Origin: a virus
Lineage: Duplodnaviria > Caudoviricetes
Virus record (IMG/VR): IMGVR_UViG_3300032038_000025
Location: 32,001-96,000 of that record
Strand: one strand, 5' to 3'
Length of the DNA: 64,000 nt
In this document: positions 10,158 to 45,594 of the stretch, in pieces
How positions within the stretch are numbered: the stretch's first letter is position 1
How the letters are laid out: each line of letters opens with the position of its first letter
The notes under the pieces: generated by a model
Told to the model about the DNA's origin: nothing
Seen by the model: the letters and a program-made list of their open reading frames with translations, nothing else
Databases searched by the model: none
Translations under genes and position numbers: made by a program

Positions 10158-10209
10158 AAAAAGCCTTCTAATTAATTTTAAATAATTAATTAGAAGGCTT
10201 ATTTTTTTT
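10158..10209. terminator. Bidirectional terminator between convergent modules
   Basis: aagccttctaattaatt...aattaattagaaggctt with an A run upstream and a T run downstream. Confidence 0.8.
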
Positions 10210-11230
10210 ACTCTTTTTTAATAAGAGCAATTTGTATCTAATAAATACAATTATTATAAGTATTTATTGCATCGTTAATTCGTTTAGTATTATATACTAT
10301 TTCATAATTATCATTCTAACAAAGAAATTGAATATCATCAATAGGAGTCATTCCATCGCCTGAATGGCCAGTACTCTCATACCATGAATTGCCAGATACC
10401 CAAGGCATCCATCCTTTATTTAAAAGATGAACTTTATAAAAAATTTTACATACATTAGAGCTTACTTTTATTTTAACAATAGGGTCATTAAAAATACCTG
10501 TTTTAGTGTTATTAAAAGTATCCATTAAATACCCATGTTTAAGTGTCTATATAGTATAAGATATTTGAGGAATAATCTTACTGGGTTCTGGCTAAAGTTG
10601 CGGCGGCGTGTTGTGATATGCGGCGATGGCAGATATAATACCGCTTTGGTCTAGTTCTGTGCGGCTAACAACCTGCCTTCCCGCCACCCATAAATTTATA
10701 CAGAAATATGATAAATCAACATTCCCAGCTATTCCATTTACCTTTTCTGTTGAAGAAAAATGACATCCCTAACATATGGCTGGAATTTCTAGATTCTGTT
10801 TACTAAAATTAGCTATCCATAGCGGATAAACGCAGTCCCCGCGCATATAGTTATCAAAAAAGGTTTGATTTGTGTAAATACCCATTCGATATCCTGCCAT
10901 TTGAATGAATTGGTAAAAAGTATCTATTACATCTTTATTGTAATATTCTTCAATATCATAATAAATACACCAAGGATGGTATTTATTTACCATAGTCAAA
11001 ACCTATCTAGCTTCTTCTTTTGCTTCTTTTACATCTCTAGCATATGAGTGAAAGGAGATTGCATATGGAATATTTAATTGCTAAAAAATATATAAGAAAT
11101 CTATATTATTAGAATATTTTTTATTATATTTAATAACCGCCGCATTGAAGATACCTTTTTTATATTCATTTAAAAGTTGGTTTTGATCTATTGTATTAGA
11201 ATAATTTATAGAAATTACTTTATAAATCAT
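10208..11230 (-). CDS. Divergent GH25 muramidase-like protein with endolysin-type C-terminal cell-wall domain, 340 aa, several TAG
   Basis: HSYARDVKEAKEEAR, YYDIEE, MGIYTN, LWIANF, GIAGNVDLS, then YKVHLLNKGW; continuous frame through TAG, ends TAA. Confidence 0.7.
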
Positions 11231-11505: not shown

Positions 11506-14500
11506 TCACGCACTGCCATAAACTGGCTGCCCATGAACTAATCCTTGACCAGTTGTAAAATGTATTGTTACGTTTGTTACATATCCATCTTTATCTCTTG
11601 TGCAAGTAGCACCAGTTATAGAACGAACTACTGTTCCCCAACCAGCTCCCCATTCTTGAAACTTTAATGTCCTAAGAATTGCTAAATCGCTAATCTAAGA
11701 TTTTTTAGCATATATTTTATCAAAATTTCCGACTTCGGCTTCAACAACCCCCTGAGCTAATTTGTTCATAAAATCCGTAAGAGTTTGATTTTTTCCAACT
11801 TGAAATCTATCTGGATTTATAGAAGAGAGGCCACCGCCTCCTCCACCTCCGCCGCCACCACCAGAAGTGGAATTATACATATTTATGGTAATACCTTCAC
11901 CAATAAGAGAGCCGCCATCAACTGTTCCATGAATTTTACTGAACCAAGCATCTCCATCAGAATTGATATGCCAGCCATTACCACTCATAGAGCCATCTTT
12001 ATTTAATGTGGTCTTACCACCGCTAAGTTTCTATTTACTAATATTCCAACCAGCTATTTTTCCACTATTAAACTATGCACGACCATCAGCAGAAATTTTC
12101 CAACCACTTTCATCCTCTTTATAATTTGCATAAATGCTGCCATTAGAATTTAATGTAAGTGTCTTTCCATCATTTGTGCTTGCACTAATAGTGCTATCGT
12201 CTATATTCCATTTACCTATTGTTCCGTTTGTTGAAGTTAACTATCCACCAGCTGTAACAGAAAATGTATTACCTAATTTAATTTCATCAGTCCCAAGATA
12301 AACTTGATTTTCTCCACTTCCATAAGATATAAATGACTATCCAGAATTATTGCTGTTGATAGTCCAATATTTTTTATTTTTTTTACTATCTTGTGCAACT
12401 GCATTATATCCAAGGGTTAATACACCTTCTGGAGTAACTTTAAATTTAGATCCAATAGATAAACCATTTTCTGATAAGTAAAAACCATTTCCGGTCTTTG
12501 TTAATGTATTATGACTATTAGAATAAATTTCACCATTTTCATTTAAATGAAGTTGACCACCAATTAATTCATTTTGAAAATTTGGGTCTTTTTTTGTTCC
12601 TATATTAGTTTTTCCTATTGTCCATCCTGCAATTGAGCCGCCCTATTGAGCAGTAAGATACCCCTGTTCAGTAACAGAAAAATTTCCACTACCAAATTTA
12701 ATCTATGGAGTAGATAAATCAATTAACATACCTGCTTTATTATCAGATTCTTTAATAGTACCATCTTCTTTTATAATTTTATCTTTGTCAGGAAAGCCTT
12801 TACTATTAAAATTATCATTTTTCCAATAGTTATTACTAACAATAAGTGCTTTATCTAAATTTGGACTTATAACAATTCTACCAGTATTATTTTTACCAAA
12901 TAATGCTCCACCACTCTAGCTATCTAAAAAGAAAGTGCGATCGCCGCTTGCATATCCAAAAAGACCTGTCTAAGATTTAATCTTACCTGCCTATTTTACC
13001 TCACCCATTAAAACGCCAGTAAATTGGTTATTTTCATTTTTCTTGCCTGCGCCCATTTGAGGAGATAAAATATATCCACCATCATCTTTAATTTGAATAC
13101 TATTTCCATCCCACTCGTTTAAATGAGCTAATCCATATTTATTTAATAAAAAATGAATAGGAATTCTTAATTTACCAATTTGATTCTCATTATCTTTAAT
13201 AGTGCAAAGGACCGCAACATTTACACAAGCCCCATCGTATTTCATTGCGGGTTTAACATCAAATTGATTTTTTTGATAAGTTCCTTCTCTTTGAATAATT
13301 TTTAATAAATTAAGATCTGTTTCTTCTTTCTAACCATTTACCATCATACTAATAGGCTAAAATACATAAGAAATATTATCATTTAATGAAATATTTTTCT
13401 ATATTCCATTTTCATTTTGATAACACTATATTTCAAAAGGATAAGAAGTATCATATTGAGGAGATACGCCATCAGAAGTATAAAGAACATATTTAAAACC
13501 AGTATTTTCTTTTAAATCAAATCTATAATTATTTTTATTTATATATTTAGTCATAACTGGTATTGTTCCATAATAATTTTTACCTTCATATGTAATTGTA
13601 CATTTTATTATAGTAGCAAGAGAATCTCCTTTCCAAGACCCTCTTCCAACATATCTCATTCGTCCACTTAAATGATCATCAATTTCAAAAACATGTCGAT
13701 CATATTTATCATTTAATGTCTACCAATAAACCTATTCTGGCTGAATAAGATTATTTCCTGTTTGATCAGGATCTAAATGAGTCCCTTCCCAAACAAGCTA
13801 ACCGCTCTACCAAAGTTGTGTTTTAAAAAATTGTTTAGTCCCACTATCCTTTATATATGTCTAAGAATCATAATTACCAATACCGTAGTTTACAGTATAT
13901 CCTTCGATATCCTTAATCTAAGTAATTATAACATTAGAAGGTGGATTATTCATTAAAGTATTTGGTAAAATTCTAACAACATAATTAGTACCATTCGTAC
14001 CAGGCTCGCCCTGTTTAACAAAAGTAAATTGAGTAATTGCAGAAAGCGATATATTTTTTTGATAATTAATCTATAATTTTATTTGATTATTTTGACAACG
14101 AATATTATATCTATTAGCAATTTGGTAAGGTAGGGTCATTGCATTATCAAAATATTCATACATTCCAGTCGGATCAATTCCAGAACTAGCTAACTCAGAT
14201 TCATTTGGTTTAACTAATAAAGTATCCTTCACTGGGAAAATCCATCTTATCTAACTATTAGATGGATTAACTGTAAGTGGATTACCAACATTATCATATA
14301 AAGTAAATGATAATGCTTGAATTACTTGCGGATGATCTAATGATTTATTTGTCGGTGATACACCATTTTCATCATATTGGAATGCGGCGGCCCCATTTTC
14401 AATAACTAATGAATAAGTGCCTTCAATCTATAGTTTATTTGTTAAAGTAACTGAAGCAGTTCCTAAAAAGATTTCATTTTTAGTTTCTTTATTAATGCCA

Positions 14501-16395: not shown

Positions 16396-19300
16396 TTATC
16401 GTCTCATTGCGCGCTGTGCGGCAAGATTTACTAAGTTATTAAACGCATCTTCAATCTATTGTTTGCTATTAACATTTGGGAAAGATGCTTCAATTTTTAT
16501 ATTTTGTTCAATAGTATCTGATTGATTATTAAACATATTAAAACCAGATTTAATATTAGACATTTTTACTTGAAGCCCATCTTTAAAATTACCAGCAATC
16601 TATCTTAATATTGAAATACCATTTAAGAAATTTTTAGTATCATCTTGATTTAAAACTAACTACTTTTTATCAAGTATAGCAATTTGACCCTAGTCTGAAT
16701 TCCAATCTCCCGTATAACCACCAGAAGCAAATCTTGCAATAGTTCTACGAGTTAATGAATTTCCTCCTTGAAGATAAAGATGTCCAGGTTGATTTGAACT
16801 TGATGCATTTGGTTTTTTAACATTATTAGATGTGCTTCCAGATCCATCAGAACCAGATCCGCCTCCATCAGAACCAGAACCACCAGTTCCATTATCTCCA
16901 CTAGACTGATATGCATTAGATAAAGCTGCTAATCTAGCTTGTAAATTAGCGGCTGCTTGGTAAATAGTATCCGTCATTCGCTAATAAGCCTTGCCGGTTT
17001 CAGCATAAACCGCCGCTTGTTCACGCTAATTATCAATAACACTTTTAATTTGGCTGACCATTTCTTTCGCAGCTGTGGTAACATTTTTATACTGTTCTTT
17101 TAAAGCATCTGCCGCAGTTTTTAACTATAATATAGCACTAAGTTCAGTAGACATACGATTAATCAACTAATCATTCTATTCAACTAAATCAGAAAACTCA
17201 TCAGTTAATTCATCAGTTCCTTCTGCAACATCATCTAAACTGATACCCGCAATTTCTGCCATCTATTCTAACTATTTTTGATAGTTTTTAGTGGTCTAAT
17301 CTAATGCTTCAAATGCTTTTTGGGTTGCTGGTATAAGACCGCCCTCTCCAGTGATTTTATCCATCATTTGTTGAATACCACCATTCCACCCAGGAACAAG
17401 AGTTTCCATAAGCGTTTTTAATTGCTCTTTAGACATATTTTTATAATTTTCAACATTAGTATTATATAAAGACGCATAATTTTGAATGGCAGAATCCATT
17501 AAATTGTTTCTAATATTAAGATTTTGCTATATATAACCAGTAATTTTATCTTGATATGCCTCATCTAGTAATGCTATTTGCTATGCTTTCTATTCTTCAG
17601 TTAAGGTAGCATCTAACATTAACTACATTCTTTTTTCTATATATTCTTGATAAGCAGCATACATTTCATCCAAATTTTGACGATATTTATCTTTATCAAA
17701 ATTATATAATTCATTTTGAGCATCAAGATAATTTTGTTGAGCATCTTCAATGCTCTATTCATCAGCAACATATTGATAAGAATAATTACCTTGAGCATCT
17801 CGTTTTAGTCTTAAAGATGTCTTACTAGATTGCGCCTATTCAAGAGCTATTCTAGCCTGTTCAACTTGTAACAGTTTTTCTGCTCTATCAACATCATATT
17901 GAGTTAATTTTTCTCTAGTCTTTAAATTCTCTAATTGTTCATCCATTAGTTTCTTTAAAGCCTTTTGATTTTTTAACCCATCTGTATTATTAATAGCTTT
18001 TTGGAATTTGTTTTCAAGAGATTGAAGTTCATAAGCAGAATTTACAGTATCTAAATATTCATCTGCGGCATCCTGCATATACTCCCACTCTTGACCTAGA
18101 TAATCAAGTCCTTTACCATTAGTAAGATTATTATTTAATTCTTCAAAAATTAAATTAAAAGTATTAGTATATTTATCTCTAATAAGATTTGCGCCATCCT
18201 ATATAGCGGAATTGATATTCTAAATAGCTCTCTTATAATTTTCTTCAAACTTTTCAGCTGCATTTGTCTGACCTGCGGCGATTGCAGCATCACGCCGTTG
18301 TTTCAAGAAATCCGCCTGTTTTCTTAATGAATCAATCTGCTTATTTTGATTATTTAGCATTTTATTATAATATTTATCCATTGCCGCATAATTCTTATCA
18401 CCATAAAGAATTTGCAATAAATCAATATTATGCTAAATTAAACCATTAACAAAATCATATCCTTCAATTTGTTTATCAAATTGATCTGCAATATCATCAA
18501 TAGTATCAAGATAAGCCTTATCAATATTATCAACAAGCTACTCAACTTCTTCCATTTGGTTCATTAATTCTTCCCAATCCTAAACCAAATGTTCCATAGC
18601 TTGTGCTTTGTCTTTGCCATAAATATCAGACCAACCAGTTTCATTGATTTCATTTATTTCTGCAAAATCTGCTTTTAATTGGTTAGTTAGTTTTTCGATT
18701 GAACCAATTGATCCACCTAAACCGCCATCTCCAAAGTATGAACGAAGATCATTAAAATCTTGTTTAACATCTCCAAATAATTCATCAAATTCACTATCTT
18801 TAAGAATATCTGTCGGCTAAAGAACATTTCTTACAAAATCATTCCAATCTCTTGCGGCTTCACCCATATCAAGACGAAGTTCAATTGAATAGCGGAATTT
18901 TTTAATATTATTTTCAATTTGCTTTTGAAGAGCTTCATCAAGAGCATCATTAGTTTCACCATACTCATTTTGAATATCTTCATATTGTTTAATTGCGCTC
19001 TAAAGCTATTTAAGTGCATCTTCGCCCTATTTGATTTTATCATCATATTCTTTAATAGCGGCAGATAGACCCTCTTTATAGGCTTTATCGGTAGATTTAT
19101 TATATTTCTAAACAAGTTCATTTCTTTGAGCAATTAATCCATTTAATTCAGACTATTTTCCAGTTAAAATCTATTGATAATTAGCAATATTATTATATTT
19201 ATCAAAAGTAACACCAAGATTTTTAAGAGTCTATCTTTGATTCTTTAAATCCTATTTTTGAATTTTTTGTTTTTCTTTTAATTTAGCAATACTTTTATCA

Positions 19301-22300
19301 AGGGTTGCATTCTGCTTATTTAAATTATCAATATATTGTTTACCAAATAATTTATCCTAATCTTTGGTTAACTTCTAAAGTGAACGATCAATCTTTTTAA
19401 GATCTCGATTGACATCATGATAAGGATCGGCGGTTTTCTTTAATGGCTTTTTCTTTTCCTTTTTAGAGGTATCAGGCTTGGTTCCACCGCCGCCTCCTCC
19501 GCCTCCGCCGCCACCTTTTTTGCCGCCGCTTCCGCCGGCATTACTGGCGTGCTTATATTTAAATCCACCACCGGAAGATTTATTTGCAGATATAACTTTT
19601 AAACCAAAAGCTTTGCTTTGTTTTTTTACTTTCATAGGTTCTGGTTTTGGAGTGACATCTAAAGCATCATATTGCCATGTTCCACTATATCCATCTCCAG
19701 CCTAAATAACAGGACCAGAATCTGAAGAACCCATACTAACCTATGGAAATCTAACAGTACCTGTTACAGTTCTTGCATTTGCATCATATGCAGCTACCTC
19801 AGACTCTTCTTCTGCATCAGTATCTGTTTCAATAACTTCTGCATCAACACCCATAGAAGCAAGATAATCAGTAGCTTGTTGAGCCGTTTGGAAAGCCCCA
19901 TCAACCATCTAACTCAATCCATTTAAAAAATCTTGATTATTTAATGAAGCACCAATCTACATATCATCAAGATTTTGACCCTAATAATATTTATTCATTA
20001 AATCATTAAAACCATTATTAAAGTCTTCTGTATTAAGTCCAACTTGCATAGCAATATCTTGTTGTGCAGCTTCCATTAAATCATCATAAGCCTCTTCAGA
20101 TCCCTATGCAGCCGCCTTCATTAAATCAAGATTTTCTGCATTGGTTAAAAAGTCTTCTGATAAAGATGTCCCATCTAGATCAAGTAAATCAGAATATGCA
20201 TCTCTTAACTCTCCTATGGCTTTAGATTGTTTTTGTAAACTACCACTAGAAAGTGCATCCATCCAATCTTCATAATTATCAGACACATCTTTAATAGCAT
20301 CGTCAAATCTTAAAACAGCTTCAGCAACATCTTCTGCCGCTCGCCCATCCTATTGTAAACTATCTGCTAATTCCTCAGACGATGTACTCATCTACTAAAT
20401 TACCTAAGTCATTTTAGCTAATTCACTCTAATCAACATCTTCATCAGTTGGAAACATCGCATCATGCATTTGATGAGCAAATTCTTTCCATATCTATTCA
20501 TTTTCTTTAGCTTTTTCAGAAAGGTCTCCAGTATAATCACTAATTTCAGTAACTTTATTAGCTAATGCTTCAGCTTGTTGAGCTGTTAATTCTCCATTGT
20601 TAGCAAGTTGTAACCATTTTTCAGCAAGCCATTTAGTTCTTTCATCAGTATCTCCAACAACATCTCTTAAATATTCAGCTTGTTTAACAGCCTGATCCAT
20701 TTCAACATAAGTATGAGTTTGTGAACCTCCACGCCCAGCATTACCATATGCATCTGAAAAAGCTGCAACTTTAGTTTCCTAAGTTTTTACTGCACTTTTA
20801 GTTAATTCATCATAATTTTGATTAGTAACTGTGTCTGGATGAGCTTGAGCATTACCAATTCTACTTAATCTATTTTCAATTTCTCCCATTGCAGCATGGA
20901 AGCCATCAAGTTTAAAAGAATTAATAGTTTCATAAAATTCTTTAGCATTACCAACTAATTTATAAGTACCATCGCCAGCAATTTTAAAATAAGATTTAAG
21001 CTATGGAGCAAGACTATCAAAATCTTCTGATGAAATATTCTTACCACTTCGTACAGTATCCTAAATACCTTGATATTGATTATAAGTTTCAGCTGCTTTT
21101 CTTTGATAATCTTGAAAATTATCTTTATTTAAATTAACTGCCGCAAGGTTAGATAAATCCATTCCCGCAATTTTTTGAATAAGTGCTAATAAAGTGTCCC
21201 AACTATCAATAGCCTATGGATCCACTTCAATAAAATCAAATAATGCATTAAGATGCTATTCATCTAATGATTCAAGAGCCTTTTTAACACCCTCTGTCAT
21301 TTCTCCGTCAAACTTGTCGTTCCACTATTTAATTTTATCTGCATACTCATCAAATTGAATAAATTTATCTCTATAGTTTCTAGCCAACTATGCATCAACC
21401 ATTGCATATAACTAATCATCACTATATTTTCCTTCTCCAAATTGCGCCTCAAGAGAATCTTTTAATGCTTCTCTGGCGTCCATATAATCATAAACGCTTT
21501 CAATGGCCTCATCTTGAATTTCAGGAAGTTTTAAAGCCTCAAGCTATGTAGAATATTTTTCATAATCCTTCATAGCAGCATCGTATGATTTTACACTATC
21601 CTCCATAGATTTTAACCATTGAGTTACCTCTTTATAAAGTGGAGACTATTCTAATTCTTTTTTCTGCTTCTAACTAAGATTATCTGTATACTAATTAATA
21701 GCATCATTTAGCTCATGATAAAAATTAACAATATCATCGCCCTCTAAATCCATTGAAAACTATAAACCATTCATGGTCTAATCTTGAAAAGCTGAAAGTT
21801 GAGATAAGGCTGTTCTTAATCCATTATCTTGTCTTCTACCACTACTAAATGTAATACCATATTGATTTGTAAGAGTATTTGCATCACCATTTGTTTTTGT
21901 AGCGACATCCTAAGCTACAAGTTTCCCGGCAGATTCCATTTCTGCTTTTGCAGATTCTTTTCCTTCTTCAGCAGCCGCCCTTCTTTTCTTAAGAATTCCT
22001 TCTGTTAAATTATCATAATGTTTTCTTAACTAATCTGCGGCCTACCCCTATAAACCATACTGATCAATAAGATTTTCAATTTGAGATTTTAACTAATTTC
22101 TAGTAATTTCATGCTATTCATATTTCTTTTGTAACTAGTCTAAAGATGAATATAATCCTCTTTGAGCCTAAATATTTTCTTGGATTGCATTTGCCTATTC
22201 AATATTTGCTTTAGCATTCTAAATGGCTTGTCTTCTTGCTTGCTATTTTATTGTTATAAGAGTTGTTATAACTGTAGCAACTGCCATTACTGCTGCAACA

Positions 22301-24960
22301 GCCACACCAGCAGAAAGACCTCCCAAACCAAATAATCCTATAATGGCGGCTCTGGCTTGAGTAAAACCATAAATAAGCATTGGAATCATACTAGTAATAT
22401 TTGTTGTTAATTGTAAAAATCTCTAACCATCTGTTAAATCTTTATTATTCCAAATATTACCAAGATTTTGAAATTGTTGGATAACCGAAGTTAATGTTGC
22501 AACGGAACCAGCTAATGCAGTCACATTTTGAACAGTTGATTGTAAATCTACATCTTTTTTCTTTTGATTAAAACTTTTATTTAAAGCAGCTCTTTCTTCT
22601 TCTAATTTTTGCTTTTGTTGTCTATATTCTTCTAATTTTCCTTCTTCTGCACTTTCTATTAATTCATCTATATGTTGAATTTGCGAATTTATAGTTTGCA
22701 TTAAATTCTTATAAATATTATCTACAACATCTGCGGCCTATTTATTAGTTCCTTTAAAAGTAGATGTATCAAAACTATTTAAATCATTTTGCATGTTTTG
22801 AAGAGATTTCTTTACATTATCAGATAAAAAACTAAATGGACTATTAGCCTCATTTAATTTAAATCCATCAAAAACATCTTGCATAGAATCTTTTAAAGTA
22901 TTAATTTGTTTTGCAAGCTGACCATTTTGATTAAAAGTATTGTTTTGATTTTGAGCATTTAATAAAGTAGATCCAGTAAAATCTTTATAAGCCTGTCTTA
23001 ATTTATCTTGTTCTGTTTGGACTGGTTTAAATGCATCTTTAAGTTCTAATAATTTATTTTTAAATTTCTCAATACCATTTTGACCAGCTAGAGCCTCATT
23101 TAAGTCATTATACCCATCCATAAAAATATCAACATTTTGACTTAAAGCCTTAAAACCCTATTCTAATAAATGATATTTTTCTCTAGCAACATCTAGCTCT
23201 CCAGCATTTTTACTTATATCTTGCAATTGCTTTTGCATGATATTAAAATCTCCTGAAGATAACTTTCCACTTTGAGCCATTTTTAAAAGATCATTCTATT
23301 GATTAATTATAAATTGAGTGGTATCATCTCCAACGCCTTTATCTTGTAAATTTTTAGCTTCTGCAATTGCATTTTTAATATATTGAGTTTGTTGTTTAAC
23401 TTTCTCAAAATTATTAATAGTAGTAGTAATACTGCCTGCTATTTGTTTACTAAAGACTAGCATAGCAACAGAACCAAGATCTCTTAATACTCCTATGCCG
23501 CCACCAATACTATCAACAAAATTAGCACCAAAAGTCGCAAGCTATGATAATGCATCAATTATTTTATTAATACTATCTGTATCAGCTAAACTATCATATA
23601 TATCTTCCATTGATGCCTTTAATGTTTGAAGATGTGCAGCTGTTGAATCCATATAAGTATCTTGTTGCTCTTGTAACGTACCTGCCGCACCTTGCGCAGT
23701 AGCTAATGCTTCATTATATTTTTCAAAATTATCAAATAAAGCAATTAAATTAGAATATTGTCTTTGACCTGCCATAGTTTGTGCTAAAGAAATCTGTTGC
23801 TCACGAGTTAATGATTCCCATTTATTACCAATTTCTTCCATTACCTCGCCCATATCACGAAGATTACCATTCATGTCAAGAACATTAAATCCTAATTCTG
23901 CCATTTTTCCAGAATAATTACCAAGAGTAACGCCATCTTCATCAATACCAGCTTTAATATCACTAATACGAGCATATACGGTTCTTAAAGCAGTACCAAC
24001 ACTTTCAGGCGCCTGCCTAGTAACAGAAATAATTGTTGACAACTGTGCGGCTAACTGATCCTAACCTACACCCATCGCGGCGGCCGCACTTGCAACCTTA
24101 CTCATACCAGTACTTAATTCCTAAAGGTTTGATGCCGTTGTTGCAGCAACCGCAGCCAGTCTATCAACATAAAGCTATGCTTCATCCGCGGTAACTTTAT
24201 AACCATTCCATACAGCAGTTAACTATTCTGAAACAGCATCTGTTGATTGACCAGTAACGTTAGCAGCTTTAAGAGTAATTGCCGCTCTTGCCTATATCTA
24301 TTTATCTGACAAACCCTGTTGTGCATAAATTAATGCAGCATTGGTATAATCAGTTGTTGTTTTTCCTAATTCTTTTGCAGCATTATTAGCTTGTACTGCA
24401 AATTTAGCCATTTCATCACTAGATTTACCAGTAACAATTCTAATATCATTTAATGATGTATCTAATGCTTTTACATATCCCCATGCCTGTTCAACAGATC
24501 GTGAAAAACCATTAACAACACTAGAAGCCACATTCCATTTAATTGTATTAGCAAGTGTTTTTGCCATTTTATCAAGTAAAGCATGGCTTTCTTTTAATTG
24601 AATATTAGTAGTTAAAAGTTGTGTAGTTAAATTTCTAAATGCGGCTTCTCCGGCAGCCCCCGCTCTAGTAAAAGTCTGATAAACTTGCTAAATTGGTAAA
24701 CTCCCTAATTCTTTTTTAAAAATTTCAAGATTAACCGTTCCTAATTTAACATTAAAAGCCTTATCAAGTGCCTACTACACTTTCCTAGCTTCTTTTTCAA
24801 TTTCCTTAAAATAGCCTCTTGCAGTTTGTATATCAGTATTATTAATCTTCATTACATCACTAACTTTCATTTTTTGTAAGTCTTGTAATGAAGATTTTAA
24901 CTGATTTAAATTCTGGGTATTAACATCAAATCCAACTTGATATTTAATTTGATTTGCCAT
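16396..24960 (-). CDS. Tail tape measure protein (TP901-like core), about 2854 aa, dozens of TAG
   Basis: Twelve track fragments are in one frame and each ends in TAG. Motifs TRQAPESVGTALRTVYARI, AGQRQYSNLIALFDN, FASGGYTGDW. Ends TAA. Confidence 0.9.
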
Positions 24961-25070: not shown

Positions 25071-25499
25071 TTATTCTTCTATTCCATCTGTGGCAAATTC
25101 ATGTTGTTCTAGCAATTCCGCATATGTATTTCTTATGTGTTCAATACTAGCTTGCGCACGTTCATTTTTAAATTTTGGATGTGTGCCACAAAATTCAAGA
25201 TATTCAGTTATGTTTTCAAGTGTTTGATTCCATGATTCCATACTATGAATGCGGTTATTAACTATATCATCACTAAATTGTAGAATAGAAGCTCGTTTAG
25301 CTTTAGCCTAATTAGTGTCAATTTTATTATCAAGTTCACTAATTTCTAAATGAATTTCATCTATTGCCCCAAGTATTTCTCTCTTCTAATCTTCTTTCTT
25401 ATCTTTTCTAGCAATAAGAAATTGAATAAAATTCCAAATACCTACTGAAGCAAACATGCTTATAATACATGTTATTATTGTCTGCCACATTGGGTTCAT
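25071..25499 (-). CDS. Membrane-anchored lysis-region protein, 142 aa, 2 TAG
   Basis: N-terminal hydrophobic helix; RASILQFSDD...YLEFCGTHPNFKN; RBS AAAGGTG. Confidence 0.7.
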
Positions 25500-25600
25500 T
25501 AGCAATATCACCTTTCCGGGCGGGAGCGCATTAGCAACAGCCGCCCTTTAATATAATAAATTTAAGATTCATCCCTTATCTCCTGTTGCAAATATTATTA

Positions 25601-27226
25601 TCAACATTTGCTTAACCTAATTTTAATCTCTGTAAATGGTTTACCAAACCAACCTGCGGTTTGATTTCCATCACCAGACTCCCAATTGGTGTCGTGAATT
25701 TCAGAATAGTATTTGTTATTATCATAGGGTTTTACAGAATATACTGCTTCATAGTAAACCCCACCAGTTTTTGTTGTATCTGTAGTATAATAGATTTGAA
25801 TAGCATCTAAACTATTAACACCATTTCCTACCCACTGTCCATTAGAGTATTTTTTAGACCAACCTTTATTGAGGTAATGAACTCTATACTGAACAGAACC
25901 AGAAGAAACATTCATTTTAATTTTAAGAATACTGTCATTTGCTACACCTGCGGCGGCGCCGTTCTTTGCAGCTTTAAGGGTGCCGTGATTTCTTGTCTGA
26001 AGGGTGTAAGAGATTGTAGGTGCGGCGGTCGCCATTGAAGCGCTCGTATTACCAGTGGTTGTAATAGTCGTCTAAGCGGTGGTTGCCGCAGCTCCATACT
26101 TCGGACGAGCATATCCTCGAATGTTGCCATCGCCTATTGTATAATAGCATCTTCTTACAGCATTATTACTATTTCCTTCAATAGTAACAATTGTCTTACC
26201 ATTCACGGTCTCGACAATACCAATGTGGTCTGCAAAACCATCATTGGGCTGAGTAGAATCGTCCCAGTTAAAGGTAATAATATCACCCGCTTTGGGAATA
26301 ATGCTTCCATCTTCATACCAAATTCCTTTAGCTTTGAATAATTGTATATGCCTTTCAACGCCACATTCTGTTCCACCAATTAGATCAGTGGCACCAGCCT
26401 TGATAAACGCAGCAGAAAGAGTGGCATCACACCATGCATCATACATGGAAAGAGCCACACCAAGAGCGAGAGGTTTATGATTGTTGTATGTATTAATAAC
26501 ATCTGCATGAGCATTGGCATTGTTAATCCATCCACGGTAAACATTCAGTACCTGTTCTGCGGTCACGCCAGTTTTAGCTTTTGCTTTTGTTGTAGTCTTT
26601 GACGAAGAAGATTTCTGCGCATACTTTTTCCAGTCGGCGGCAGTGCCATAAAAAATATTGAGATCCAGATTGGAATTATATCCATTTAATCTTCCTGCGC
26701 CAGTATACTGATAGATTGCAACCTTACCAAAAGTTCCCCAACCATTAGCGTCAGTCCAAGGATTAGATTGATATCCGTATACTAAATTATGATTTGCGTA
26801 TTGCGCACACCAAAGTGGGTATCCCGCAGAACCAACCGACGCCGCAAGAGGAACAATACTTTTGCTTGTATAAAGGAAAGGCTTTACACCAGAAAGTTTA
26901 TAAAACTCATCCATTAAATTTTTAAGATAAGAAATATTGTTCCAAGCACTATTTTGATAAGACTACCAATCAATAGCCATAATAGCTTTTCCAATATAAT
27001 TTTTTACTTTATTATAGAAAAACTTCGCCTATGCGGCAGCTCCACCGCCACCAACATAATGATAACACCCCGCAAGTTTACCTCTATTTAGCACAGTGTC
27101 GATCTTATAAAAATCAGGATTGATATATGTTGTACCTTGCGTTGCCTTAACAATACAAAAATCATATGGTATCTTGGTTACATCTACTGAGTTATTTGAA
27201 GAAATATCAACTCCATTTAATGCCAT
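25601..27226 (-). CDS. Endolysin: GH25 muramidase + CHAP + C-terminal cell-wall-binding domain, 541 aa, 3 TAG
   Basis: GVDISS, VKATQG, AIDW[TAG]SYQN, LDLN; CHAP WCDA...DHIGIV...IEGN; TAG at 27029, 26963 and 26072. Confidence 0.9.
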
Positions 27227-27240
27227 ATAAATACCTCCTT

Positions 27241-27272
27241 AAAAAAGAAAGGAGAGAAATAAATCTCTCCTT
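27241..27272 (-). terminator. Hairpin/terminator between holin and endolysin
   Basis: aaggagaga-aataaa-tctctcctt with a U tract on the minus strand. Confidence 0.55.
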
Positions 27273-27285
27273 AATTAATAGTTAC

Positions 27286-27555
27286 TTAATCTAATGTCTG
27301 TGTTTTCTTAATCAGCTGATTAATGCCAGTTGCGGCAAAGCCAGATACAATGCCGATCGCAAGCGCATTAATAATATCTGCCGCAGGAAAGTCTGGCATG
27401 ACAAACATTCCAATCACACCAAGAATTGCTCCTGCAACTCCCATGATAGATGGGATGCGATCGTTGTTAATCTGTGTCCACTCCTTGACAATATAGCCAA
27501 TAAGATAGCAGATAATTGTAATTCCTGCAACACTAACGATACCTAAAGATTCCAT
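27286..27555 (-). CDS. Holin (A118-like)
   Basis: Three hydrophobic segments; IPSIMGVAGAILG, GIVSGFAATGINQ; adjacent to the endolysin. Confidence 0.8.
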   Translation of the reverse strand: MESLGIVSVAGITIICYLIGYIVKEWTQINNDRIPSIMGVAGAILGVIGMFVMPDFPAADIINALAIGIVSGFAATGINQLIKKTQTLD

Positions 27556-27568
27556 AATAATATCCCCC

Positions 27569-29908
27569 TTAACTAATATATTTATAATTAACTCCTGTTT
27601 CAAAAACAGAAGTCAAATCCGTTTGTTCAACCCAAGACCCATTGACTTTCTTATAAACCGTTCTACCTTCAACCCAAGATCCGTTCACTTTAATATAAAT
27701 AGTTCCAGTATTCGTAGTACAGGTAAGCACGATATTATGTGCGGCATTGATATTCGTTAACTTATAAATATAGTTAACGACTATCTTACCAGTCTTTGAA
27801 TCTGTGGTTTGTTCTTTCTCAAACACAATTGAGTTTCCATTATCCGCACCAGTGATTTCTGCGGTCGAGTCATCTGGCACTACAACGAGCGAATAATTCT
27901 GTCCCGCAAGCCTGACTACTTGACCATCTGGATACAATTTTGCACCAGTTCCAGAAGAGGTAATGAAGTAATAATCAACATCACCAAAGACAAATATCAG
28001 ACTATGTTTAGCATTGACATTGCTCAGTGTGTAAGTATATTCCCCACCGCCGCCTGTCGCTTCAATTTCAACCTTGAACTGCAATGAGTCATTACCATTA
28101 TCTGTGTATTGGTCTTTAAAAAACTTAACATCAATATAATGACTTCCTGCGCTTACTGTATAAGTTAGTTCATGTTCAGCAGTTCCGTTAATAGAAGAGC
28201 AAGCCAATTCAACATCAGACGCATCATCAGCAGAAGAGGATGTGCTAAGAGCAGTGTCTAGCTTACCGAAGATACCATAGTCATATCCTGCCTCGGCATA
28301 GTTAATATACTTGAAGGTAATGATACAATCTGATTCCAAATTTAATGTGACTCTGGCAACAGCCGCAGAATTTGAAACGCCTTGGTTGTTTGACTCATAA
28401 TACCCATTGCTGTTTACTGCGAATCCATAGTTTGAACTTCTATTTGCAACAGAGTATGTATTTTTGGGAATGCCACCCTGTAGCTGACTAGTTATGTCAA
28501 CACCATTATCAAGAGCAAGCGTTAATTTTGTCTCAGTTGGGAAAATAGATATTGTCTGATTCGTTCCTTCTTGTACACGAGTTGTGCCGTTGGCGGGATC
28601 AGTTGTTGCATTGATACTTGATATGGTAATCGGGTAGTAAGTATATTGCGGATCTTCGTCTGGTGGAATAAATGGGCCAGACTCACCGATTGTTATAACG
28701 TGGTCTGCCGCAATTCCTGTTAACTCATACTCGTAATAATACTGGTCGCCGCTAGTTGGAATTTCATAAACAACTGTCCATGTTGCACCGACAACCGCAC
28801 CACCATAGTAACCAATAGTAAACCGCAGTTTTGCTTCTTGTAACTCGGCTCTTGTCCAAGTTCCTGCGGTCATAGTTATTGTGGAATTAGATGTCGTTGT
28901 AAATGATGACTCACTGCCTTTTGCGGTTGAACCAGAATAAAGTTGCAAATCCGCAACCTCGCTTGAATTTGACGTACTCTCACAGTGTCCTCTGACTTGT
29001 ACAGTAACAGAAGTAATCGTTGCATTTTCTGGAATACCGCTGAAGTCAAAAGAGTAATCAATGTGTGCGGTTGAGCCTTGAGAAGAACAGTAGTCACTTG
29101 AAGTGCCACCGCTAGTCTCAACGCCAACACCAATAGCATTTCGGTAGTTTGTGCTACTAATATTTCCGCTTGTTGTGGCATTTTCTGGATTTGCTTCAAT
29201 TGTGCCGCCAGTTACAACCTCTTTAAGAATAAGGCCGCCAGTGACATCAGTGCCATTATCTAAAACTTGAATGCCATCAAGCGAGTCGGTGTTGACCTTT
29301 ACAACAGCATCGCCGCCCTCCACAATTTCCTGCGTTGCGGGTTCGGCGGTTATTCCACTCACACTACTGGTCGCAGTGATTGTATAAGCCGTGCCTTGAA
29401 TAGTGTAACCAACCGTGAGTGTTGCACCATAAAATCTGCAAATATATGATGTCGAAGTTGTAGATGATGTACCTCTTGTGACGTACAGACGAATCTTTGC
29501 ATTTCGCAACTCTGCTAAAGTCCAAGAGCCAACTGATAAGGTTACTGTACTTGCATAGTTTGAAATAGTTGTTGCAGACCCTTTTGTCGTTGTTCCAGTA
29601 CACATCTGCATTTGACGAGTGCTGATATATCTTGAACTAGTTGTACTAACATAACCTTTTGCCTGACATGCAACAGAATTAATAGTCGCACCTTCTGGGA
29701 TTTTACTGGTGTCGAAGTTGTAATAAACATAAGTAGCAGCACCAGACCCAGTTGTAAGTACGAACTGGGCATAGCTACTACTTGTTGCATCCGTGTAGCC
29801 ATTGTCAATAGGATACGAGCTACTTACAGATGCATATCTTGAATTTGTTGTATCCAGTGAGGAAGGATGAAATGTTAAGCTATTACTTACGTCTACTTGT
29901 CTTGCCAT
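27569..29908 (-). CDS. Ser/Thr-rich virion fibre/adhesin with repeated beta-sandwich domains
   Basis: 779-aa ORF with duplicated FD.S.IPE.ATI.SV domain; no TAG. Confidence 0.65.
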   Translation of the reverse strand: MARQVDVSNSLTFHPSSLDTTNSRYASVSSSYPIDNGYTDATSSSYAQFVLTTGSGAATYVYYNFDTSKIPEGATINSVACQAKGYVSTTSSRYISTRQMQMCTGTTTKGSATTISNYASTVTLSVGSWTLAELRNAKIRLYVTRGTSSTTSTSYICRFYGATLTVGYTIQGTAYTITATSSVSGITAEPATQEIVEGGDAVVKVNTDSLDGIQVLDNGTDVTGGLILKEVVTGGTIEANPENATTSGNISSTNYRNAIGVGVETSGGTSSDYCSSQGSTAHIDYSFDFSGIPENATITSVTVQVRGHCESTSNSSEVADLQLYSGSTAKGSESSFTTTSNSTITMTAGTWTRAELQEAKLRFTIGYYGGAVVGATWTVVYEIPTSGDQYYYEYELTGIAADHVITIGESGPFIPPDEDPQYTYYPITISSINATTDPANGTTRVQEGTNQTISIFPTETKLTLALDNGVDITSQLQGGIPKNTYSVANRSSNYGFAVNSNGYYESNNQGVSNSAAVARVTLNLESDCIITFKYINYAEAGYDYGIFGKLDTALSTSSSADDASDVELACSSINGTAEHELTYTVSAGSHYIDVKFFKDQYTDNGNDSLQFKVEIEATGGGGEYTYTLSNVNAKHSLIFVFGDVDYYFITSSGTGAKLYPDGQVVRLAGQNYSLVVVPDDSTAEITGADNGNSIVFEKEQTTDSKTGKIVVNYIYKLTNINAAHNIVLTCTTNTGTIYIKVNGSWVEGRTVYKKVNGSWVEQTDLTSVFETGVNYKYIS

Positions 29909-29921
29909 TTAATCACACCCC

Positions 29922-31853
29922 TTACTGTTTAATCCAGATGTCACCATCATTGCCGCCTGAAGGGGAAGCACTTGAAACCGTGACAGTGGAATATGTTAAT
30001 GCCACATTCACACTGGCGAGATTGGTAACATCTACTGTACCATTTGCGGTAATTGTCTGACTGCCGCTTACTAATTCACTTGCGGTCACCGTCACCGCAG
30101 TACCATATTTCGTTCCACCGCTGATATAACCAGTGGTATTTGTCACGCTCGGTGTCACTGTGATTGAGTGATTGCTCACCGTTCCTTTGCTTGCGGACGG
30201 CGTTCCCGCTGAACCACTCGCAACAGATTTTGTAGCTTGTGCAGAATAGTATCCTGCGGGTACAGTAACTGTTGCGCCACTTACCGTAAGATCATCGCCG
30301 TCTCTCTGGGTAATTCCAGAACCAACATAGGTAGAACTAATTGCACCAACCTTCACGATGCCTGTCGTATAAACTCCTGCGGCAACCGCATTTTGTTCAG
30401 ACTCGGTTGGAGTGACTGTTTTCGCCGCCTGTGTTGTAAGCTGAAGAGTTCCAGTTGTTGTTCCTGCGCTAACATATCCTGCCGCCTGTGTGTGACTTGC
30501 CGTCACAAGGCCAGTAGTAGAGTTGACAGAAGCAGTTGGATTAGCATGAGTTGCAGTTGCCACTGATTTAGTTTCCTGCTCCGCATAGTATCCAGATGGC
30601 ACGGTGATAGTTGCGCCAGAGGCGGTGAGATCCGTCTCATCTCTCTGAGTGATATCAGAGCCTACATATGTCGATGAAATCGCTCCCACCTTCACTACAC
30701 CAGTGGTATACATGCCAGAAGCAACTGCGGTCTGCTCACTCTCAGTCGGTGTGACAGTTTTTGCGGCTTGGGTTGTAAGCTGTTGAGTAGCTGAACCACT
30801 CACAGTAATCGTCCCCGCTGTTCCCGCACTCACATATCCTGCGCTCACCGTTGGTGTGACGCTCTTTGTTGCCGAAGCTGTCGCAGTAATCTTACCATCT
30901 GAACCAACACTAATGGTTGGGTTTGCAGTAACTGTTGTTGCAGGAGTTGTTGCGCTACCAGAAGGCATTGCATTAATCTGAACACTAGAAAGACCATCAT
31001 AACCAGAGTCGGCTGTGATGGTCTGACTTGATGTTGTTGGATTAATGTTGGTTTTTGCTTGGAGAGATGGAGCAGAAGAGGAGACATTAACATTAGCACT
31101 CGCATAATTCGTTACATCATGCGTTCCGTTCGATGTAATGTTGATTGTTCCTGTGGGGGTGATGCCACCACTTGTATCTCCATCATATGTTGTAATTACT
31201 TCACCAGTTTCATAATGTATTAATTTAACTGTTGTGTTGGTCGCAAGATCTTTCATAAATCCGGCTGATGTCATATCTATATTAACAAAAGCTGTTATAT
31301 GTAAACCATCTGTGCTACCAACGCTATTAACTGTAATTCCCGGAGGTACTGGACAATCATTTCTATAGTAACCGGCACCACTCCAATATGGCCCACCAAA
31401 TCTACCAAGAACTAATTCTGTTAAGTTAGTATTATTAAAAACATAATGTTGCGCTTCAAAATAATCAACGGAAGACCCTTGATAATACACAGAAGTTGGC
31501 GCTAAAATTAATCGTTTTAAATTTGGGTATTTTTCAATAGAAAATTGATTATTACTGCCGCTAGAATAAAAGGTCTGGCCAGCACCAGTTTTTATAACTT
31601 TTCCAGTTAATGTTAAATTAACTAAATGTTCCATATTGCCATATGTATTAAGCGCATCATAAGAATACTTACCACCCATATCAATAATCATGGTTTCAGT
31701 ATACTTCTTACCAGTGCTAGATGTATATACGGTCTCGCCACTAATAGTATCTTCTTCTCGTCTATATGTTAACACATTTCCGCCATTGTCGGTGGCCTTG
31801 AAGCCTGCGACATTTGTAAATTCTCTTCCGAATATTTGTAATGTATCGCTCAT
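29922..31853 (-). CDS. Thr-rich tail fibre-like protein with internal duplication
   Basis: 643 aa; QLTTQAAKTVTPTESEQ...TVP.GYY occurs twice; C-terminal SPSGGNDGDIWIK. Confidence 0.65.
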   Translation of the reverse strand: MSDTLQIFGREFTNVAGFKATDNGGNVLTYRREEDTISGETVYTSSTGKKYTETMIIDMGGKYSYDALNTYGNMEHLVNLTLTGKVIKTGAGQTFYSSGSNNQFSIEKYPNLKRLILAPTSVYYQGSSVDYFEAQHYVFNNTNLTELVLGRFGGPYWSGAGYYRNDCPVPPGITVNSVGSTDGLHITAFVNIDMTSAGFMKDLATNTTVKLIHYETGEVITTYDGDTSGGITPTGTINITSNGTHDVTNYASANVNVSSSAPSLQAKTNINPTTSSQTITADSGYDGLSSVQINAMPSGSATTPATTVTANPTISVGSDGKITATASATKSVTPTVSAGYVSAGTAGTITVSGSATQQLTTQAAKTVTPTESEQTAVASGMYTTGVVKVGAISSTYVGSDITQRDETDLTASGATITVPSGYYAEQETKSVATATHANPTASVNSTTGLVTASHTQAAGYVSAGTTTGTLQLTTQAAKTVTPTESEQNAVAAGVYTTGIVKVGAISSTYVGSGITQRDGDDLTVSGATVTVPAGYYSAQATKSVASGSAGTPSASKGTVSNHSITVTPSVTNTTGYISGGTKYGTAVTVTASELVSGSQTITANGTVDVTNLASVNVALTYSTVTVSSASPSGGNDGDIWIKQ

Positions 31854-39651: not shown

Positions 39652-39751
39652 ATATTTTACCTCCCACAAAAAATAATTTAAAAACACCTTTTCATATTTT
39701 ATATGAAAAATTCTCATATTTAATTGTCTCACTTTGACCATAATTTTTTTC

Positions 39752-39780
39752 TTGACATTTTATTAAAAATTTGTTATAAT
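39752..39780 (+). promoter_or_regulatory. SigmaA/sigma70 consensus promoter, extended -10
   Basis: TTGACA-N17-TATAAT with TG. Confidence 0.85.
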
Positions 39781-39807
39781 TTTATTAAAGAAAGAAGGAT
39801 AAAAATT

Positions 39808-40548
39808 ATGAACACTTATGTTTTTTCAGATTTACATAGTCAATATAATCTCTGGGGACAACTTAAAAATTATATAAAACCAGAGGATAAAGCCTATTGT
39901 CTTGGTGATTGTATTGATCGAGGCCCTGCCGCATTTGAAATATTGACAGAAATAATGGATGCCCCTAATATTATTTTATTGTGCGGCAACCATGAAGATT
40001 TTATCAACAGCATTGGTTCAGAAATAATTCCTTATATTGAAGAAGGCTTCCACTGGTCTCATCCAAAAATGTCACTATGGAGAGCCAACGGGGCAGAAAA
40101 AACTATTAAAGCATTTTGTAAAATGACTCCTTTAAAACGACTTCAATTAATTGACAAAATCAAAAGCCTTCCAACTCATATAGAATATACTAATACAAAA
40201 GGAGATATAATATATCTTTGTCATGCGGGGCGGCAGCCAGATATCGCAGAGATACCAGATATGCATATGGGCAGTATTCCAATGAATAATTATATATGGG
40301 ATCGTAGTCATATTTCTGATTTACTCTGGCGAGGAAAAGATAATGAATATTGTATTCATGGACATACTCCAGTGGGATATATTTATCATTTTCTTAATGA
40401 TTTAGAAAAACCACCGCCATCTCAATTTGAAATATATAAATATTGTGAAGGTCATAAAATAGATATTGATCTTGGTAGTTTTTATACCAACCGCGCTTGT
40501 TTATTAAATCTTGATACTTTTGAACCAATTTATTTTAAGGAGAAATAA
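39808..40548 (+). CDS. Ser/Thr protein phosphatase-like metallophosphoesterase
   Basis: SDLH, GDCIDRG, GNHE, HAG, HGHTP. Confidence 0.85.
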   Translation: MNTYVFSDLHSQYNLWGQLKNYIKPEDKAYCLGDCIDRGPAAFEILTEIMDAPNIILLCGNHEDFINSIGSEIIPYIEEGFHWSHPKMSLWRANGAEKTIKAFCKMTPLKRLQLIDKIKSLPTHIEYTNTKGDIIYLCHAGRQPDIAEIPDMHMGSIPMNNYIWDRSHISDLLWRGKDNEYCIHGHTPVGYIYHFLNDLEKPPPSQFEIYKYCEGHKIDIDLGSFYTNRACLLNLDTFEPIYFKEK

Positions 40549-40549
40549 T

Positions 40550-40852
40550 ATGGATAAATATTTAATTAATAAAAATGAATTGCTTTCTTTTCTTAGATAT
40601 GAAATTCTATATAAATGGAAAGAAGCTGAAAAAATACAGCCTGATAAGAATGATACTTTTGCAAAATATCTTATAAATTCATCTATATATAAGCCAGACC
40701 ATGAATTTATTCAGTCTTTTTGTGTAACGGATGAAGAGCGGAAAGACCCAATTGGAACTGGTATTTATAATGAAATTCTCCCCGCAGATTTAGCAAGATA
40801 TGAAGCTGCAACATTTTATTCCTCTAGAAAGGAGTCATATTATGAATTCTAA
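40550..40852 (+). CDS. Hypothetical protein
   Basis: RBS AAGGAG; ATG 40550. Confidence 0.6.
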   Translation: MDKYLINKNELLSFLRYEILYKWKEAEKIQPDKNDTFAKYLINSSIYKPDHEFIQSFCVTDEERKDPIGTGIYNEILPADLARYEAATFYSSRKESYYEF

Positions 40853-41024
40853 TGTTCACTATCACGGAGGAGTTGGTTTTCTTGATGTTATATTAATTGT
40901 AAATATTATTCTTAAATTACTTGGTTCTATTAATTGGAGTTGGAGCGTTGTATTGTGGCCTCTTTGGACTGAGATAATTTTATGTATAATTATAATTATA
41001 ATAGATTTAATAGGAGATAATTAA
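40842..41024 (+). CDS. Small membrane protein
   Basis: GGVGF...LKLLGSINWSWSVVLWPLW. Confidence 0.7.
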   Translation: MNSNVHYHGGVGFLDVILIVNIILKLLGSINWSWSVVLWPLWTEIILCIIIIIIDLIGDN

Positions 41025-41027
41025 AAA

Positions 41028-41849
41028 ATGAATAGTAAAATATATATGTGCGGCGACCTTCATGGAGATTATTATCCAGTTAAAACTTTTTATGAATATA
41101 TGAATTTTATTGGTCAACCGCTCACTGAAAACAATATATTAATTGTTCTTGGTGATTTTGGTGCCAATTACTATCTTGGACTTCGTGATAGTATTTTTAA
41201 AAAACATCTTAATGATTATAAAATGACATATTTTATTATTAGAGGAAATCATGAAGAAAGACCAAGTATTTGTATGAAAAACAACCCTGGTCAATGGCAT
41301 ATTGAAGATTTTTGGGGCGGACAGGTGTATGTAGAAAATGAATTTCCTTATATAAAATATGCTTTAGATGTTCCATCTAAATATGAAATACCAACAGCGC
41401 AGGGTAAACCAATCAAAACACTTGTTTTACCTGGTGCTTATAGTGTTGATAAAGACTACAGACTTGCAAATCACTGGAGCTGGTTCCCACAAGAGCAATG
41501 TAATGAAGAAGAGATGCTTTGGGGAAAAATGTTAGCGGCAACCGCAGATTGGGATTTAATTTTATCTCACACTTGTCCAGTTATATATGAACCAACTGAT
41601 CTTTTTTTACCAATGATTGATCAATCTAAAGTAGATAAAACAACTGAAATATGGTTAGGAGATATTGAATATAAAACAAATTATAAACTTTGGTGTTGGG
41701 GTCATTATCATGCAAACCGCATCTATCCGCGAGTTGAAAATAAAGATAAATTAATGCTTTTTAATGATTATTTTCTTGATGTATATAAATATTTTTGTGG
41801 AAATTATGATCTTTATAACTCTTTAATAAAAATTCGCATTGATATTTAA
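41028..41849 (+). CDS. Metallophosphoesterase
   Basis: GDLHG, LGDFG, RGNHE, GAYSVDK, SHTCP, GHYH. Confidence 0.85.
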   Translation: MNSKIYMCGDLHGDYYPVKTFYEYMNFIGQPLTENNILIVLGDFGANYYLGLRDSIFKKHLNDYKMTYFIIRGNHEERPSICMKNNPGQWHIEDFWGGQVYVENEFPYIKYALDVPSKYEIPTAQGKPIKTLVLPGAYSVDKDYRLANHWSWFPQEQCNEEEMLWGKMLAATADWDLILSHTCPVIYEPTDLFLPMIDQSKVDKTTEIWLGDIEYKTNYKLWCWGHYHANRIYPRVENKDKLMLFNDYFLDVYKYFCGNYDLYNSLIKIRIDI

Positions 41850-41867
41850 ATAAATTTTTGATATAAT
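41839..41867 (+). promoter_or_regulatory. SigmaA-type promoter
   Basis: TTGATA-N17-TATAAT with TG; -35 lies in the last codons of the upstream gene. Confidence 0.65.
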
Positions 41868-41920
41868 AATATCATAAGAAAAGAAAAAATATAAAATAAC
41901 AAAAGAAAGAGTGAAAAATA

Positions 41921-43490: not shown

Positions 43491-43494
43491 TTTT

Positions 43495-43546
43495 AATGGA
43501 GAGCAAATGCTCTCCATTTGTTTTTTTTATTATTTTTTGTTATAAT
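43495..43546 (+). promoter_or_regulatory. Terminator hairpin abutting a sigmaA-type promoter
   Basis: aatggagagc-aaat-gctctccatt plus T run; TTGTTT-N17-TATAAT with TG. Confidence 0.6.
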
Positions 43547-43586
43547 ATATATATAAGATATGAAAAAGAAAGGATGTGTTTTAATT

Positions 43587-43892: not shown

Positions 43893-43893
43893 A

Positions 43894-44995: not shown

Positions 44996-45022
44996 AAATA
45001 TTATATATAAGGAGTTTTTTAT

Positions 45023-45560: not shown

Positions 45561-45594
45561 ATAAATATATAATAAAGGAAGAGGTAAAAAATAA

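Follow-up and report, generated by a model that had tools for sequence, protein, structure and literature searches.

The 64,000-nucleotide window analyzed here covers bases 32001-96000 of the virus record IMGVR_UViG_3300032038_000025, a gut phage sequence of 117,928 bp (32% GC, 88% complete), and carries a predicted endolysin gene on the minus strand (25601..27226; positions refer to the window unless stated otherwise). The gene consists of 541 codons and a TGA stop, lacks internal TAA and TGA, and has three TAG codons that are read as sense. Comparison with related loci suggests that TAG is probably a sense codon for glutamate (Glu) in this phage and that the catalytic Glu of the endolysin is itself written TAG. 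If so, this would most likely represent a new form of the stop-codon recoding already known in phages.

The endolysin gene and its GH25 active site

With the standard code (table 11) the endolysin frame is split into open reading frames (ORFs) of 65, 280, and 144 residues (27029..27226, 26072..26914, and 25601..26035), the first of which ends at TAG codon 66 (27029-27031). The other two TAGs are codon 88 (26963-26965), which occupies the third position of a D-x-E motif, and codon 385 (26072-26074), which lies in a variable Thr/Ala-rich linker and is uninformative on the meaning of TAG. A rough estimate from the base frequencies at 32% GC gives a probability of ~1e-14 that a 541-codon frame without TAA or TGA arises by chance. 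A preliminary description of this DNA had given the truncation to 65 residues at 27029 exactly, and had placed the TAG at 26963 on the Glu of the GH25 D-x-E motif.

The latter assignment agrees with the alignments. Residues 6-182 (26681..27211) match the GH25 catalytic domain (Pfam PF01183) with 78.2 bits relative to a cut-off of 27, and HMMER aligns D86-W87-[TAG]88 (26963..26971, minus strand, with D86 at 26969-71) with I-D-V-E of 2WAG and L-D95-M-E97 of 6ZMV. D95 and E97 have been described as the catalytic residues of the DXE motif that is conserved in GH25 (PMC7954357), and replacing their equivalents by alanine lowers the activity of the pneumococcal GH25 enzyme GHIP (PMC3712932). In the AlphaFold model of residues 1-212 (predicted local distance difference test 91.8, predicted template modeling score 0.90), D86 and E88 are positioned at the end of strand 81-86. 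The best 22 Foldseek matches of this model (E ≤ 0.001) are all GH25 lysozymes or endolysins, with template modeling scores of ~0.6-0.73 and with 6ZM8, 1JFX, 2X8R, 2WAG, and Cpl-1 at the top. Moreover, PDB 2IXV, which is among the matches, is according to its entry title the E94Q mutant of Cpl-1 solved with ligand bound, and we infer that this choice is consistent with the customary inactivation of enzymes by an E-to-Q change. The fold and the positions of D7, D86, and residue 88 are the same as in the solved GH25 enzymes [Cpl-1 (1H09/2IXV), cellosyl (1JFX), 2WAG, phiSM101 Psm (4KRU), and 6ZM8/6ZMV], whereas the phage lysin is 18-24% identical to them, has TAG as the codon for the catalytic Glu, and carries, fused to its GH25 domain, a CHAP-like domain and a C-terminal domain that belongs to no known family. 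D86 is present, and the full Asp and Glu pair of the D-x-E motif holds only if TAG codon 88 is read as Glu. Codon 66, in turn, falls on a Glu that is invariant in a 39-sequence alignment of the GH25 subfamily (AAA-E-AKFF).

DNA from three relatives bears directly on these codons. Codons 66 and 88 are GAA/GAA in L001, which is 86% identical overall, and GAA/GAG in L003, while L002, a 99% identical strain from an independent metagenome contig, has TAG at positions 66, 88, and 385. In five full-length database homologs, with 82-91% identity over the GH25 region, residues 66 and 88 are both E, and both TAGs of the 146-residue gene downstream of the lysin are opposite GAA and GAG in L001. Among 80 further DNA-checked GH25 loci, GAA or GAG is found at both sites with two exceptions at codon 88, namely one TAG (L071, which shares its contig with L055) and one gap in the alignment; neither CAA nor CAG occurs in any of the 80 loci. 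As the preliminary description anticipated, codon 88 discriminates between Glu and glutamine (Gln), and the evidence points to Glu.

At the protein level, residue 88 is E in 114 of 120 database homologs and Q in the remaining six, and D-x-Q GH25 proteins are present in public collections as P0014, P0019, P0021-P0023, and P0063. Two contigs of 37-49 kb with in-frame TAGs, which belong to a different lineage, are informative in this context: L008 (IMGVR_UViG_3300021387_001163) and L055 (IMGVR_UViG_3300028048_000269). In the lysin gene of L008 (L008:5508-7205), TAG occupies the two GH25 sites, one position of a CW_7 repeat (E in P0019), and one position of a GGD-x motif (E in P0007), such that all four of its TAGs are at positions where homologs have Glu. 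In the lysin gene of L055 (L055:3001-4929), codon 66 is GAA and codon 88 is TAG, which is the exact E/Q pattern of P0014. Because the fetched DNA of these relatives has TAG where the database proteins have Q, the D-x-Q lysins most likely represent TAG codons mistranslated by table-15 gene calling, judging from the two lineages with fetched DNA; for P0063, with Q at both sites, no close DNA locus was found. The preliminary description had named standard-code homologs carrying D-W-Q as evidence that would count against it, and none was found among the DNA-verified homologs, the D-x-Q lineages with DNA having TAG instead. The use of TAG as Glu thus seems to extend beyond the 118-kb phage family to the L008/L055 lineage. 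In L003 (OCVV012849608.1), two long ORFs have their sole TAG in the last 6-16 codons, which suggests that TAG is a normal stop there and that this lysin family may be passed between phages with the standard code and phages with recoded TAG.

The tape-measure gene, the suppressor tRNA, and a proposed decoding model

The tape-measure gene (16396..24960, minus strand; 2854 codons) has 85 TAGs and many full-length homologs, and offers a test of TAG meaning that is separate from the lysin. In 120 homologs compared at the protein level, the TAG sites have E in 27%, Q in 16.5%, and D in 12%, with E as the consensus at 39 of the 85 sites and Q at 10. The baselines of the same gene are E 34, Q 14, and D 14% for Glu sites, and Q 42 and E 10% for Gln sites. 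These tallies are contaminated by TAGs in the homologs themselves that have been read as Q (E-to-Q 0.05-0.23, Q-to-E 0.05-0.13), and because this inflates the E-to-Q rate, the test was repeated on DNA-verified loci. In four such relatives, two of which are identical, TAG corresponds to E in 34%, D in 19%, and Q in 11%, the baselines being E 40, D 15, and Q 9% for Glu sites, and Q 42 and E 11% for Gln sites. With the duplicate dropped, the log-likelihood of E over Q is 99.8 nats for the three relatives, and Glu is the best of all residues, calculated with substitution profiles drawn from the same alignments. Taken singly, the two nearly TAG-free relatives give 45-49 nats and L070 gives 11 nats. 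With 85 TAGs, near-complete suppression is needed to finish one tape-measure protein. As an aside, the homologous tape-measure proteins P0122, P0131, P0134, P0151, and P0172 carry Hint/intein Pfam domains (PF07591, PF14890), which suggests that inteins reside inside the tape-measure genes of related phages.

When TAG is treated as a sense codon, the record contains 111 non-overlapping ORFs of ≥80 residues with ~375 in-frame TAGs, and these ORFs end in TAA (93) or TGA (18) and in no other codon. Alignments to PDB structures of other TAG-containing genes are less telling: one of the three TAGs in the RNase H gene is opposite E in human RNase H1 and the others are in variable spots, the TAGs of a RecJ-like protein are opposite mixed residues, and a RuvC-like protein gave no PDB match.

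ARAGORN identified a cluster of 21 tRNAs in the whole record, located outside the window, that includes one tRNA(CUA), two tRNA-Glu(UUC), and one tRNA-Gln(UUG). The tRNA(CUA) (genome positions 14367-14438) is the sole one in the record and lies ~43 kb from the lysin. In a blastn comparison with 50,697 phage records, all of its annotated matches are tRNA-Glu. Its D-stem is GUC/GAC, its D-loop and variable loop measure 10 and 4 nt, and its first pair is C1-G72; in the phage tRNA-Gln, the D-stem is GCC/GGC and the D-loop and variable loop measure 9 and 5 nt. The bacterial amidotransferase GatCAB depends on U1-A72 and does not accept the additional D-loop base found in tRNA-Glu (PMC2811023). Since the tRNA(CUA) has Glu-type features that GatCAB rejects, Glu attached to it should escape amidation; in other words, if the host glutamyl-tRNA synthetase (GluRS) charges the tRNA(CUA), Glu should stay Glu. 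ARAGORN found no tRNA in 66 related loci, and two scans of genome contigs for the host returned just one 3.5-kb contig in a Bacteroidetes metagenome-assembled genome bin, which is too weak to name a host.

These features can be combined in a model of decoding. The host GluRS would charge the phage tRNA(CUA) with Glu, and GatCAB, which converts Glu to Gln on tRNA-Gln, would leave it alone. Codon 88 would then be decoded as the catalytic Glu of the D-x-E motif and codon 66 as the second subfamily-invariant Glu. Until the suppressor tRNA is active, translation would end at codon 66 with a 65-residue fragment; from then on, full-length active lysin would be made. We infer this timing of suppression, as well as any selective reason for a TAG at the catalytic site. 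The prediction in the preliminary description that full-length active lysin needs the phage decoding system fits this model, as codon 66 otherwise stops translation. The dependence on the suppressor would, however, be common to the lysin and ~60% of the phage genes, and would constitute a genome-wide property of the code that is not specific to lysis.

The lysis locus and the distribution of TAG codons

The endolysin is directly preceded by a TAG-free gene for a holin of the Phage_holin_5_2 / Hol44 family (27286..27603, minus strand; Pfam), as the preliminary description had noted of the adjacent holin. The distance from the holin stop to the lysin start on the same strand is 59 nt, as in a holin-endolysin cassette. 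Downstream of its GH25 domain, the lysin has a TAG-free CHAP-like domain (residues 299-352, 26171..26332; Pfam E = 1.4e-7, 32 bits relative to a cut-off of 26) and a C-terminal domain of ~140 residues (25604..26029). The latter has no family match in Pfam, is shared with a second GH25-like protein of the phage at 37% identity, and is presumed to bind the cell wall. The gene is therefore predicted to encode an intact, holin-partnered endolysin with a GH25 muramidase, a CHAP-like, and a wall-binding-like domain. It is followed on the same strand by the gene for the 146-residue protein mentioned above (25071..25511), which is membrane-anchored and has two TAGs. The lysins of GenBank phages are at most 41% identical to the endolysin, a blastn search of GenBank phages found no close relative of the phage, and a search of viral contigs with the protein P0001 returned nothing.

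Between holin and lysin there is a 9-bp hairpin followed by UCUUUUUU (27249..27272, minus strand; region 27234-27272) that resembles a terminator. Its 3′ arm, UCUCCUU, can alternatively pair with the ribosome-binding site of the lysin, AAGGAGG, and the two folds are mutually exclusive. Because they exclude each other, the hairpin could, as a weak suggestion, couple translation of the lysin to transcriptional read-through; its folding z-score is -1.5, and terminator-like sites are about as numerous as expected from shuffling.

The lysin and the holin are located in a block (~25600-31400) of higher GC content, 0.36-0.50 compared with 0.26-0.31 in the tape-measure gene, and with more G-ending codons. 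The block also encodes proteins of 779 and 643 residues and is TAG-free apart from the lysin. The 779-residue protein shares 94% identity with its counterpart in L001 and 98% with that in L002, compared with just 50-65% for the flanking genes, and the block looks like a recently exchanged module. PHROGs and Pfam assign almost no function to the neighboring genes.

The preliminary description viewed the TAG at the catalytic codon as a code-gated lysis switch. The dependence of the lysin on suppression is real; nothing, however, marks the lysin as a dedicated switch. The share of TAG among TAG, GAA, and GAG codons is 3/14 = 0.21 in the lysin, 0.31 in the tape-measure gene, 0.38 in the gene for a 1524-residue protein, and 0.35 in the second GH25-like gene, and is zero in the holin (0.00) and in the four genes upstream of it. 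TAGs occur in structural genes and in genes for putative nucleic-acid enzymes (matches to RNase H, RecJ, and GIY-YIG), and the lysis genes are not richer in the recoded stop than other genes, contrary to what is expected if recoding regulates lysis. In the textbook holin-endolysin scheme it is the holin that sets the timing of lysis, and a TAG-free holin thus speaks against the lysin TAGs as a dedicated lysis switch. Collectively, the idea of a lysis switch is supported in part, and the "switch" is best seen as a general consequence of a code in which TAG is Glu, with nothing shown to be special to the lysin. The preliminary description was right in placing the TAG on the catalytic Glu. It had left the meaning of TAG open and expected Gln at codon 88 to cripple the muramidase; with TAG read as Glu, the enzyme would not be crippled.

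The second GH25-like gene (10208..11230, minus strand; 340 codons) has seven TAGs and writes its D-I-E motif in ordinary GAA/GAG codons. It lies at the far end of the tail gene block, and its product may be a virion-associated wall hydrolase. Across the genome, TAG use is strongly block-wise. A run of ~15 plus-strand genes (39724-52678) is almost TAG-free, with three TAGs in the RNase H gene and one in an 84-residue ORF, and the blocks adjoining it are TAG-rich. This pattern could reflect expression timing or gene exchange.

Alternative readings and the relation to known recoded phages

Several points weigh against the assignment of TAG to Glu. The evidence for it is comparative throughout. 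Its weakest link is the presumed charging of the tRNA(CUA) by a GluRS. E. coli GluRS uses the anticodon as an identity element, and some amber suppressors derived from tRNA-Glu are charged with Gln, so that partial insertion of Gln may occur. No domain of an aminoacyl-tRNA synthetase (of the GluRS or glutaminyl-tRNA synthetase, GlnRS, type) or of a release factor was found in the 88%-complete record. Furthermore, the TAG-to-Q rate in the tape-measure comparisons (11-16%) is slightly above the baseline of Glu sites (9-14%); TAGs shared with the relatives and read as Q explain part of this excess, though perhaps not all of it. Finally, distantly related GH25 enzymes of known structure have Q at residue 66 (2WAG, 6ZMV), and codon 66 alone hence does not discriminate between Glu and Gln.

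One alternative, with which the slight excess of Q would agree, is that decoding is ambiguous: the tRNA would carry Glu in some molecules and Gln in others, owing to mischarging by GlnRS or partial amidation, and only the Glu fraction of the lysin would be active in its GH25 domain. CUA shares U35 with the Glu and Gln anticodons, and GlnRS readily recognizes CUA anticodons in E. coli. Since the tRNA(CUA) has neither the U1-A72 pair nor the short D-loop by which GatCAB selects tRNA-Gln, and since the presence of 85 TAGs in a single essential protein speaks for a well-defined meaning, we regard mixed decoding as improbable. Reading TAG outright as Gln (code 15), with a D-x-Q GH25 domain that is inactive or merely binds the wall and with lysis left to the CHAP-like domain, is more improbable still. 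It would accord with the published TAG-recoded phages found, which are all assigned Gln, with annotation pipelines, which translate TAG as Q, with the Q at residue 66 of distant GH25 enzymes, and with the lack of TAG in the CHAP-like domain. We nevertheless rejected it: the TAG sites are Glu-like, by ~100 nats over Gln; each of the four TAGs that can be aligned in the lysin and its neighbor is GAA or GAG in relatives; no CAA or CAG occupies codon 88 in the 80 loci; the body of the tRNA is of the Glu type; and the ligand structure of Cpl-1 (2IXV) is of E94Q, a mutant of a kind that would normally be made to kill activity. That table 11 breaks the gene into three pieces might also suggest a pseudogene, or TAGs that arose as assembly or sequencing errors. 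This explanation was rejected as well and carries next to no probability, given that the independent contig L002 keeps the three TAGs, that 541 codons pass without TAA or TGA, and that ~375 in-frame TAGs occur in otherwise intact genes together with a matching suppressor tRNA.

A different question is whether selection has kept TAG at the catalytic Glu as a fail-safe, such that only decoding as Glu by the phage tRNA gives active muramidase, while termination by the host release factor 1 (RF1), which acts on UAG, or near-cognate readthrough (e.g., with Gln) gives a dead enzyme. Two of the three lysin TAGs fall on the only two Glu that are invariant in the 39-sequence alignment, for which a calculation by hand that assumes three TAGs among 14 Glu-type codons gives a chance of 12/364 = 0.03. 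A TAG at the catalytic Glu recurs in the second recoded lineage (L008/L055, ~50% identical), which is suggestive only, and P0063, with Q at both sites at the protein level, may represent a third lineage. In the higher-GC block (lysin, holin, and four upstream genes), TAG accounts for 3/14 codons in the lysin and 0/86 in the rest (P ~0.002, calculated by hand and post hoc). On the other hand, the second GH25-like gene has GAA/GAG at D-I-E despite its TAG share of 0.35, and L008 and L055 share two TAG sites and therefore count as one lineage. The TAG sites of the tape-measure gene are slightly less conserved than its GAA/GAG sites (E 34% versus 40%), which argues against a general pull of TAG to essential sites. 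Moreover, a TAG anywhere upstream is enough to gate the protein, the wall could still be cleaved by the CHAP-like domain, the holin is not gated, and all of the statistics are post hoc with tiny samples. We therefore consider a selected fail-safe unlikely, and give no better prospects to the combined proposal that TAG is Glu both in this phage and in the rumen lineage of L008 and L055 and that selection keeps the catalytic TAG as a decoding lock.

As a Glu codon, TAG would set this phage apart from the code-15 phages (crAss-like phages, the phAss-1 group, Garnet, and Topaz), which it otherwise resembles [10.1101/2021.08.26.457843 (Borges et al. preprint), PMC9523058, PMC10607447, PMC11210395]. 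Many in-frame TAGs with TAA/TGA stops and a phage tRNA(CUA) are present in both, both have a presumed standard-code host and lack a phage aminoacyl-tRNA synthetase, and both have recoded structural and lysis genes. The assignment of TAG to Gln in those phages is the feature that is not shared, the TAG sites here being Glu-like and the suppressor body that of a tRNA-Glu. Borges et al. observed only TAG-to-Gln and TGA-to-Trp recoding (10.1101/2021.08.26.457843); the phAss-1 paper, the Pharokka-gv paper, and a 2026 survey of jumbo phages all use Gln or table 15, and a full-text literature search for phage TAG read as Glu found nothing relevant. Borges et al. also proposed that recoding regulates lysis genes (10.1101/2021.08.26.457843), and the gating of lysis genes by recoding is accordingly not a new hypothesis. 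Their TGA-recoded Agate phages share with our model the idea that lysis proteins are made only after a switch of code. In Agate, however, a suppressor tRNA, a tryptophanyl-tRNA synthetase, and RF1 are encoded directly upstream of the lysis genes, which are preferentially recoded. In the phage studied here, the tRNA lies ~43 kb away in the 21-tRNA cluster, neither a synthetase nor a release-factor gene was found, the holin is unrecoded, and the lysin is not enriched in TAG.

A Glu meaning of TAG raises the question of how a tRNA-Glu body with a CUA anticodon is charged in a standard-code host. The lysin offers the cleanest test object, as a single residue of known catalytic role differs between the two readings. 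Current gene callers translate TAG with table 15 (PMC11210395), which in this phage puts Q on catalytic glutamates. If TAG is indeed Glu, table-15 annotation gives a wrong residue at hundreds of positions in this phage and its relatives, catalytic glutamates included, and lysin genes mined from such phages would need to be re-coded with Glu, and not Gln, for activity.

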